DNA of 64,000 nt, taken from assembly GCF_013122565.1 (NCBI RefSeq), contig NZ_CP053258.1, one strand, 5' to 3'. This document shows, in pieces, positions 61,578 to 62,900 of the stretch; the stretch's first letter is position 1; each line of letters begins with the position of its first letter. Source of the DNA: Escherichia coli (GTDB taxonomy: Bacteria; Pseudomonadota; Gammaproteobacteria; Enterobacterales; Enterobacteriaceae). Made by a program: the position numbers and the translations under genes. The notes below the pieces were generated by a model. That model was given only the letters and a program-made list of their open reading frames with translations. It ran no database searches and was not told where the DNA came from.

Positions 61578-62399
61578 ATGTCACTCATTTGTTCTATTAA
61601 ATTCATTCAACATGAATTTAATGCATATATTTTAGATAACAACTACGCCTTCTCTGACGGTGAGGTTCTGATGGTAGATAGTGCTGTTAATTTATATTTT
61701 AAACCTTATGAACGATATTTCAAAGAAATCAAACTCAATGAAAAAATCATCAAAAGATACCTACAATACACTAACATTCAGATAGAGACAATGTCTGCTC
61801 CTACAAAGTTTTTACGTGTTTCTAATGTACCGACTGGATTGCTTAATGAAATGATTATTTATCTCAACTCGGAAGAAAATAATCATCATGATTTCTCTGA
61901 AGTTTTGCTTTTATCTTGCCTATCTATTTTTTCCGAATGCAAAGGTTTCATTACATTGCTTAATAACGGTGTATTATCCGTTTCCGGAAAAGTGAGGAAC
62001 ATTGTCAATATGAAGTTATCCCATTCATGGAAACTAAAAGACATTTGTGACTGCCTGTGCATGAGTGAAAGCTTGCTGAAGAAAAAACTAAAACAAGAGC
62101 AAACAACATTCTCACAGATTCTTTTAGATGCCAGAATGCAGCACGCTAATAAATTGATGCGGATAGAAGGCTCAGTCAATAAAATTGCCGAACAATGTGG
62201 TTATGCCAGTACATCTTATTTTATTTATACTTTCCGAAATTATTTCGGCAACAGTCCAAAGAGATTTTCTAAGGAAAAAGGTATCCACCCGCATAGCCAT
62301 CTTGCAGACTTCAGCGGTATTCTGCAGACGGATGCGAACGCTGGGTTCATGCCCGCAACAAGAACCATGGTGTGCATGTCCGCACGCCGTCGGCGCTGA
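61578..62399 (+). CDS. AraC-family regulator of the Rns/CfaD/AggR fimbrial-activator type; 3' end apparently fused to IS66-derived sequence
   Basis: C-terminal dual HTH ...LSHSWKLKDICDCLCMSESLLKKKLKQEQTTFSQILLDARMQHANKLMRIEGSVNKIAEQCGYASTSYFIYTFRNYFGNSPKRF... resembles Rns; tail ...HLADFSGILQTDANAGFMPATR... resembles IS66 TnpC; RBS AAGGAG. Confidence 0.75.
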   Translation: MSLICSIKFIQHEFNAYILDNNYAFSDGEVLMVDSAVNLYFKPYERYFKEIKLNEKIIKRYLQYTNIQIETMSAPTKFLRVSNVPTGLLNEMIIYLNSEENNHHDFSEVLLLSCLSIFSECKGFITLLNNGVLSVSGKVRNIVNMKLSHSWKLKDICDCLCMSESLLKKKLKQEQTTFSQILLDARMQHANKLMRIEGSVNKIAEQCGYASTSYFIYTFRNYFGNSPKRFSKEKGIHPHSHLADFSGILQTDANAGFMPATRTMVCMSARRRR

Positions 62400-62900
62400 C
62401 GGATGAAGCACTGAAAGGGGTCTGTGGGATGTATACCAACGAGTCGGAAATAAAGGGAATGCCGGCGGAGTAACGTCTTGCTGAATGTCAGCAGAAAGCG
62501 AAACTACTGCTGAAATCCTTGGAAAGCTGACTGCGTGAAAAGATGAAAACCCTGCCACGACACTCAGAACTGGCGAAAGCGCTCGTGTACTGGCGATACG
62601 AATGGAATGACGAGGCTGCCTGTCAGTCACAGGGAGCTTTTGGCACAAAATCAACGGAAAGGCCGCCAGCACTGGAATTAAGTTGTACTGTCCCCGTACT
62701 GGCAAGCCATACCCGGAACAACCTCACCGCAAACTGCGCCCGGGAGCAACCATTACAGCCTCTGCACTGGATTTGCAGCCCCGGCATCTTTCGGCGGTGC
62801 CTCCTGCCGTTCTCCATCTCTGCTGTATACCCCAGCACTTCTGAGCCTCATAATCTTCGTCACACATCACACAAAACCACTTTCTCATTTCACCATATAA
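62290..62900 (+). pseudogene. Second degenerate IS66-family transposase (tnpC) remnant, same orientation as the first
   Basis: Frame-shifted translations ...FSGILQTDANAGF..., ...VHARNKNHGVHVRTPSALTDEALKGVCGMYTNESEIKG..., ...MKTLPRHSELAKALVYWRYEWNDEA... parallel the remnant at 53790-54790 motif by motif. Confidence 0.6.

Follow-up and report, generated by a model that had tools for sequence, protein, structure and literature searches.

The regulator ORF at 61578..62399 of the window (the 64-kb stretch of DNA analysed as a whole) is a gene/IS fusion, in which a ydeO gene cut after codon 233 runs into an internal piece of an IS66-family tnpC gene. Sequence comparison identifies the regulator as a diverged extra copy of ydeO, apparently acquired horizontally, and not as an Rns-type gene. 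Its most likely status is the one given in RefSeq, a pseudogene, and the locus is probably a dispensable relic in the cargo region of a genomic island. The anatomy of the chimera is secure, and its functional status is a judgement. The ORF and the pieces of DNA that compose it are:

61487..62275, + strand: safA-ydeO-homologous DNA fragment of 789 bp (blastn and MAFFT against K-12; 81% nucleotide identity over 802 columns)
61578..62399, + strand: chimeric ORF of 273 aa, the first 233 from YdeO and the last 40 derived from IS66 (ORF list)
62276..62341, + strand: first tnpC piece (59 of 66 nt match ISKpn24 tnpC, L002 2501-2566)
62342..62590, + strand: second tnpC piece, beyond a 49-bp deletion (210 of 251 nt match L002 2614-2864)

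The translation of the ORF passes through ...SPKRFSKEK into GIHPHSHLADFSGILQTDANAGFMPATRTMVCMSARRRR and a stop codon, the C-terminal end being ...SPKRFSKEKGIHPHSHLADFSGILQTDANAGFMPATRTMVCMSARRRR. The initial annotation described a regulator ORF that runs from an AraC-type HTH into IS66 DNA, and the ORF list and the alignment of the downstream DNA to tnpC (E 5e-69 in a plasmid collection search) bear this out. It placed the end of the feature at 62900, which is too far, as the ORF stops at 62399 and IS66-derived DNA reaches only to 62590.

In glutamate-dependent acid resistance, the AraC/XylS activator YdeO joins EvgS/EvgA to GadE, and native ydeO sits in the EvgA-regulated safA-ydeO operon (PMC5706723); its neighbour there is ydeP. 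The chimeric ORF scored 442.5 bits (E 4.8e-133) against the NCBIfam YdeO equivalog (NF007407), for which the curated cutoff is 348 bits, with protein residues 1-240 on profile positions 1-240 of 253. The runner-up NCBIfam families were GadX (112 bits) and HilD (102 bits). The C-terminal tail of the YdeO profile (241-253) was unmatched, and similarity at the level of residues ends at E233. Up to that point 183 of 233 amino acids (78.5%) are identical to K-12 YdeO. Within the DNA-binding half the figure is 86.7%, and there is no change in the first recognition helix. Pfam places HTH_18 at residues 156-232 (E 2.4e-15) together with two HTH_AraC matches, and thus finds the two-HTH C-terminal DNA-binding domain of the AraC/XylS family in the chimeric ORF. 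Among solved structures, the best match was the GadX DNA-binding domain (E 7e-25).

At the DNA level, 586 of 699 nt in the coding part are identical to K-12 ydeO, with dS 0.54 and dN/dS 0.21 (0.10 in the DNA-binding half). The ydeO sequence has thus diverged under purifying selection, and therefore the donor gene was functional. The dS value implies a putative donor well outside E. coli. A word-indexed search of 5.8 billion protein clusters returned no intact relative closer than native YdeO (~78-80%), and a HMMER scan of 1.84 billion representatives found nothing nearer than native E. coli YdeO except the chimera itself. One E. coli genome gave a 90-95% match to the ydeO part, which is probably a short partial alignment.

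The initial annotation proposed that alignment with homologues would locate the junction, and this places it at 62275/62276: the last position with ydeO homology is 62275 and the first with IS66 homology is 62276, with an uncertainty of 1-2 bases. The junction lies in an A-run (62275-62279) where the ydeO and tnpC partners share only 0-1 nt, and GC content changes across it from 32.6% on the ydeO side to 53% on the tnpC side. Beyond it, 62276-62590 has 84-89% nucleotide identity to ISKpn24-like IS66-family tnpC. Matches to TnpC by tblastn cover codons 285-316 and 331-418, and the segment corresponds to an internal piece of tnpC from codon 292/293 to codon 413 of 512, spanning 364 bp in the reference and 315 bp in the window. 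Read in the TnpC frame, TnpC K293-A314 in the first piece corresponds to K234-A255 of the ORF (KGIHPHSHLADFSGILQTDANA vs KGIHPQSHLAGFSGVLQADAYA). The 49-bp deletion follows at 62341/62342, and the second piece contains two stop codons in the TnpC frame before it ends at the same codon 413.

Searches of 62276-62590 by blastn and tblastn against the ISKpn24 element found no inverted repeat, tnpA or tnpB, and the segment falls short of a complete IS66-family element, which has terminal inverted repeats, tnpA, tnpB and an intact tnpC. The piece cannot transpose because it is only a damaged internal part of tnpC without those other components. The junction is ~1.75 kb inside the reference IS and at no IS terminus; therefore, simple IS66 insertion cannot have made the fusion. 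We infer that it arose by deletion or other illegitimate recombination.

The left side of the regulator gene is also truncated. The fragment at 61487..62275 consists of the last ~10 safA codons (about 61487-61516), the safA-ydeO intergenic region and ydeO codons 1-233. Relative to K-12, the intergenic region has a 13-bp gap, and the RBS AAGGAGATAAAATG is conserved. Since the fragment starts inside the safA 3' end, most of safA and everything 5' of it are absent, including the place where the EvgA-regulated promoter is expected. Queries with K-12 SafA and YdeP gave no tblastn match in the 64-kb window. Alignment thus shows the ydeO fragment to be bounded by two illegitimate junctions, one in the safA 3' end on the left and one after ydeO codon 233 on the right. 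Codons 1-233 carry zero frameshifts and zero stops, whereas the neighbouring scraps each carry such damage.

Ordinary E. coli core genes (flg, mdo, csg and ghrA) occupy the first 42.9 kb of the window. They are followed by a tRNA gene and a genomic island, and the gene order in NZ_CP048605.1 is ghrA, tRNA-Ser, island genes, integrase remnants and ycdU. After the tRNA the island is of the CP4 type, with CbtA/YeeU toxin-antitoxin genes, antirestriction genes, YfjI, YagK/YfjJ and integrase remnants by ycdU. The features of the island that bear on the chimera are:

42956..43043, + strand: tRNA-Ser(GGA), attachment site of the genomic island (serX-tRNA island; ARAGORN and the NZ_CP048605.1 annotation)
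53695..54830, + strand: second IS66-family remnant (blastn/tblastn against the ISKpn24 element)
55993..61190, + strand: intact four-gene chaperone-usher fimbrial operon (ORFs; NCBIfam and Pfam)
61264..61474, + strand: scrap from the 5' end of a glpT-like transporter gene (blastn ~71% to E. coli glpT; tblastn in three frames)
62753..63559, - strand: two decayed 'zinc ribbon' genes, island backbone (PGAP in three near-identical genomes)

The fimbrial operon matches a FimA-like subunit, a PapD chaperone, an usher and a fimbrial tip protein in NCBIfam and Pfam. Between it and the ydeO fragment, the glpT-like scrap covers GlpT codons ~1/8-71 and is broken by two frameshifts and a stop, and PGAP annotates it as 'hypothetical protein, frameshifted, missing C-terminus'. 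On the other side, the zinc-ribbon stretch abuts the right end of the IS66 fragment, with homology to other E. coli islands from window position 62588, and ISL3, IS3 and IS256 pseudogenes lie beyond it. The ydeO fragment is one scrap among several in the island cargo region, and it is outside the fimbrial operon. We considered the window segment as a diverged copy of the native fml-ydeP-safA-ydeO neighbourhood and rejected this: the island usher is only 29% identical to K-12 YdeT, the usher in the native ydeO neighbourhood, and YdeP and SafA are unmatched.

The second IS66-family remnant (53695..54830) has homology to both outer edges of the reference coding region and an internal deletion from tnpB codon ~24 to tnpC codon ~303, and it probably keeps both termini. 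The two IS66 pieces were also considered as halves of one element. This idea was rejected on the grounds that both contain an overlapping part of tnpC, with only 71% nucleotide identity between them there.

Replacement of the native C-terminus by IS66-derived codons had been proposed in the initial annotation and is supported. The DNA-binding domain is complete, as judged by the position of HTH_18 and by the AlphaFold model described below. The lengths given there need correction. The tail was put at about 30 residues and is actually 40, and the native end was put ~10 residues past the junction, while K-12 YdeO has 20 residues beyond E233 (YRCQSHTGMNTGNTMNALAI). The first 22 residues of the foreign tail (K234-A255) are in the TnpC frame and 17 of them are identical to ISKpn24 TnpC 293-314. 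The remaining 18 (G256-R273) are tnpC DNA read out of frame, because the 49-bp deletion at 62341/62342 shifts the frame, and the ORF stops at 62397-62399. The 'GF' in '...ANAGF' matches TnpC by accident. The ydeO frame would have happened to join the TnpC frame and then slipped at the 49-bp deletion, with a stop 40 codons past the junction. An open run of 18 out-of-frame codons has a probability of 0.42 in random sequence; therefore, the length of the chimeric ORF needs no special explanation.

The family does not conserve the native tail: the median end of 98 representatives is 6.5 residues beyond the equivalent of E233, and 27 of them end at most 3 residues from the junction position. The foreign tail is confined to this locus: among the best 150 of 3,384 family representatives (E <= 0.001), none aligns past query residue 243. 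It had been reasoned that homologues sharing the tail but lacking a nearby IS would speak against a chimera. None were found, and every tail-bearing protein comes from the same locus. The AlphaFold model of the chimera, built on a 40-sequence alignment, has a mean pLDDT of 88. Block means over 10 residues are 82-98 for residues 1-233, most of them >90, and helices span 135-233, with the last at 227-233. In the tail pLDDT is 78 for residues 231-240 and ~50 from 241 on, and there is no secondary structure beyond a 3-residue turn. If translated, the ORF is predicted to give a normally folded YdeO-like protein with both domains intact and a disordered, arginine-ended tail of 40 residues. We found neither a ydeO-IS66 fusion nor a role for the YdeO C-terminal tail described in the literature.

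The locus is rare among complete genomes. Positions 61200-64000 are present at >=99% identity in only three complete E. coli genomes out of 5,426, of which two are from baboons and the third from a human. In these three genomes RefSeq/PGAP marks ydeO as a pseudogene with the remark 'missing C-terminus' and, after it, the IS66 transposase as one with the remark 'missing N-terminus and C-terminus'. In GenBank the exact 273-aa protein is entered as 'transcriptional regulator YdeO' (KOA35423.1/HEC5122002.1). The 90% cluster of the chimera has 24 members on ~90 contigs, all from E. coli, and the same tail is present in every member that reaches the C-terminus. The gene neighbourhood is unchanged in eight further assemblies. 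Carrier strains include PapRG-06-5, A30, JNE23-001 and STEC_MHI813. Each of the three complete carrier genomes has a second ydeO match, ~85% identical, which we take to be the native gene; the island copy would then be redundant.

Several observations support the reading of the ydeO fragment as a relic, which we judge the likelier account of the locus: the gene is truncated on both sides, its neighbours are scraps, it accumulates substitutions like junk DNA, an IS2 insertion interrupts it in one isolate (GCA_019880045.1, at about codon 58), and carriers have the second copy. Among carriers, substitution density is 12.9/kb in the ydeO part, 12.3/kb in the IS66 remnant and 15.5/kb in intergenic DNA, compared to 3.5-8.8/kb in the intact fimbrial genes. 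Such a relic would have little or no expression, and the second ydeO copy in the genome would cover for it. Counting against a relic are its 233 undamaged codons, the conserved RBS, the ORF that is open in 12 of 12 DNA copies examined and in ~90 contigs from three haplotype groups, and the confidently predicted fold. The non-conserved native tail, the absence of a detectable terminator after the adhesin gene and the pattern of polymorphism may also be set against it. Polymorphism in four unbiased DNA copies comprised 4 synonymous and 5 non-synonymous changes, a tilt towards constraint that falls short of significance (dN/dS about 0.33, P = 0.096 vs neutrality); the eight further copies were clonal and added nothing to this count.

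Activity of the chimera is possible. We regard it as a minority explanation that the chimera is expressed as an EvgA-independent YdeO-type activator whose disordered tail is tolerated or mildly harmful. Equally tentatively, its transcript would come from fimbrial read-through or from the remains of the glpT-like promoter, with translation from the conserved RBS. Its output would be directed, on the same doubtful footing, to the GadE acid-resistance regulon or to the neighbouring fimbrial genes. Besides the points already counted against a relic, this explanation gains from the two intact domains, from the close identity to K-12 YdeO in the DNA-binding half with its unchanged first recognition helix, and from natural family members that often end at the junction position. 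It also has precedents in AppY, which binds the gadE promoter (PMC10057817), and in PatE and PsrB, which activate gadE and hdeA (PMC10877973). A terminator scan after the adhesin gene found none, and read-through transcription from the fimbrial operon may be possible. However, the native upstream region with the EvgA-regulated promoter has been lost, and a promoter scan on the + strand upstream of the chimeric ORF found no sigma-70-like site. The fimbrial genes are separated from the ORF by the frameshifted glpT-like scrap, and the 40-aa foreign tail could destabilise the protein. The second ydeO copy, the IS2 knock-out and a substitution density as high as that of flanking junk also weigh against an active product.

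The more specific proposal that the chimera is a working EvgA-independent YdeO paralogue, co-transcribed with the island fimbrial operon and with a tail that is neutral or a modulator of stability, seems unlikely to us. If it were so, the fimbriae and the GadE acid-resistance regulon would be induced jointly in the gut.

The initial annotation called the regulator 'Rns-like' and implied a tie to the fimbrial promoter. In this reading, a virulence regulator of the Rns/CfaD/AggR type would control the adjacent fimbrial operon and would have had its C-terminus clipped by an IS66 insertion. A chaperone-usher operon does lie immediately upstream of this AraC-family gene, in the same orientation, and there is distant similarity to the PDB structures of Rns (query 77-230, 65 bits, E 5.5e-17) and CsvR (query 44-231, E 1.2e-17). 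However, YdeO is the best-scoring family and its curated cutoff is exceeded, with no Rns-type model of comparable rank. The 78.5% identity to YdeO stands against a partial, C-terminal match to Rns, and the upstream DNA is the safA-ydeO intergenic region. The fragment thus derives from the safA-ydeO locus, and the glpT-like scrap and safA remnant separate the ORF from the fimbrial genes, which leaves the implied tie to the operon unsupported. The junction is in mid-tnpC and not at an IS end, where simple insertion would have put it. These comparisons already refute membership of the Rns family, and we consider an Rns-type regulator of the fimbrial operon very improbable.

IS-related repeats are common places of misassembly, but nothing specific suggests that the junction is an assembly or sequencing artefact joining unrelated reads, and the chance of this is negligible given that the three complete baboon and human genomes, each finished independently, share it base for base and that no fewer than eight other independent draft assemblies contain it as well.

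The locus is an example of how island cargo regions gather gene scraps, and the ydeO/IS66 chimera is a known kind of event that is already recorded in public annotation. It also carries a lesson for annotation: an ORF caller may give a plausible 273-aa 'regulator' that is a gene/IS fusion, and GenBank names a single YdeO protein where RefSeq has two pseudogenes. If the chimera is active, the acid-resistance network of E. coli would gain a further AraC-like input acquired by horizontal transfer, beside AppY, PatE and PsrB, and the 20-residue YdeO tail would be dispensable.

AppY, from the DLP12 prophage, and PatE, PsrA and PsrB, from O157 O-islands, resemble the chimera as AraC-family genes on mobile islands and as kin of the GadX/YdeO group. 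They are intact genes with demonstrated expression and targets, whereas the chimera is cut on both sides, annotated as a pseudogene and known from sequence alone. The Rns/CfaD/CsvR/AggR group has in common with the chimera a superfamily with two C-terminal HTH motifs, but it is much farther from the chimera than YdeO or GadX are, and its N-terminal domain is barely alignable. The Rns and CsvR proteins end about 6-7 residues past the aligned region, near the position of the chimera's junction. ISKpn24-like IS66 elements carry tnpA, tnpB and a tnpC with a DDE transposase, while the piece in the window is only part of tnpC. Compared to native K-12 YdeO (b1499), the chimera is an extra copy in the tRNA-Ser island, away from the native locus; it is without most of safA, ydeP and the upstream region expected to hold the EvgA-regulated promoter, and its last 20 residues have been swapped for 40 that are IS-derived. 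The upstream intergenic DNA, the RBS and the last safA codons are homologous in both.

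The chimeric ORF, which joins part of ydeO to an IS66-derived tail, lies in a CP4-type genomic island with the following features:

42956-43043, + strand: tRNA-Ser(GGA), where the CP4-type island starts, continuing onwards to 64000
52168-53521, - strand: a CadC/ToxR-like winged-helix protein (290 aa) and an overlapping 162-aa protein
53695-54830, + strand: another IS66-family remnant, on the 5' side of the fimbrial genes
55993-61190, + strand: an intact four-gene chaperone-usher operon
61264-61474, + strand: a 5' fragment of an MFS transporter gene resembling glpT, about 71% identical in nucleotides to E. 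coli glpT
62753-63559, - strand: two adjoining island-backbone genes annotated as "zinc ribbon"

The island measures about 33 kb in a near-identical complete genome, and its cargo includes a CbtA/YeeU toxin-antitoxin pair, antirestriction genes, and JAB-domain genes. Past the end of the window it holds many transposase pseudogenes (ISL3, IS3, and IS256). The two "zinc ribbon" genes are disrupted by frameshifts and stops; most E. coli genomes hold intact relatives of them (about 83% nucleotide identity).

In isolate GCA_019880045.1, an IS2 end (100% match) adjoins the island's ydeO copy at about codon 58, corresponding to window position ~61751. The chimera is therefore knocked out in this isolate, with no obvious effect. 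When the ydeO part was compared with the E. coli complete-genome collection, the best match of one genome had an identity of 90-95%, lower than that of the chimera carriers (99%) and higher than that of the native genes (about 85%). This match could reflect a partial alignment over a short stretch, or an allele more closely related to that of the donor.

The remnant at 53695-54830 shows homology out to each outer edge of the reference ISKpn24-type element, but it has lost an internal segment between tnpB codon ~24 and tnpC codon ~303. Its nucleotide identity to the tnpC fragment at 62276-62590, which supplies the tail of the chimera, is only 71%, indicating that the two derive from different elements. 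In tnpC coordinates, the deletion endpoint is only ~30 bp from the start of that fragment, which may be a coincidence.

The glpT-like scrap, which has the gene for the fimbrial adhesin on one side and the safA'-ydeO' fragment on the other, spans GlpT codons ~8-71 and contains two frameshifts and one stop; a promoter could have been carried in along with it. The gene pair at 52168-53521 lies just upstream of the fimbrial operon and its neighbouring IS66 remnant, divergent from both, and could encode the real regulators of the fimbriae. The 162-aa protein had no family match.

The operon encodes a FimA-like subunit (185 aa), a chaperone (236 aa), an usher (867 aa), and a tip protein (382 aa). 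In the tip protein, the N-terminal ~220 residues, which matched no family, are presumed to form the receptor-binding domain. None of the four proteins reached an NCBIfam cutoff; the closest models were PRK09926 and PRK09828, for a chaperone/usher pair of E. coli fimbriae, and StkA.
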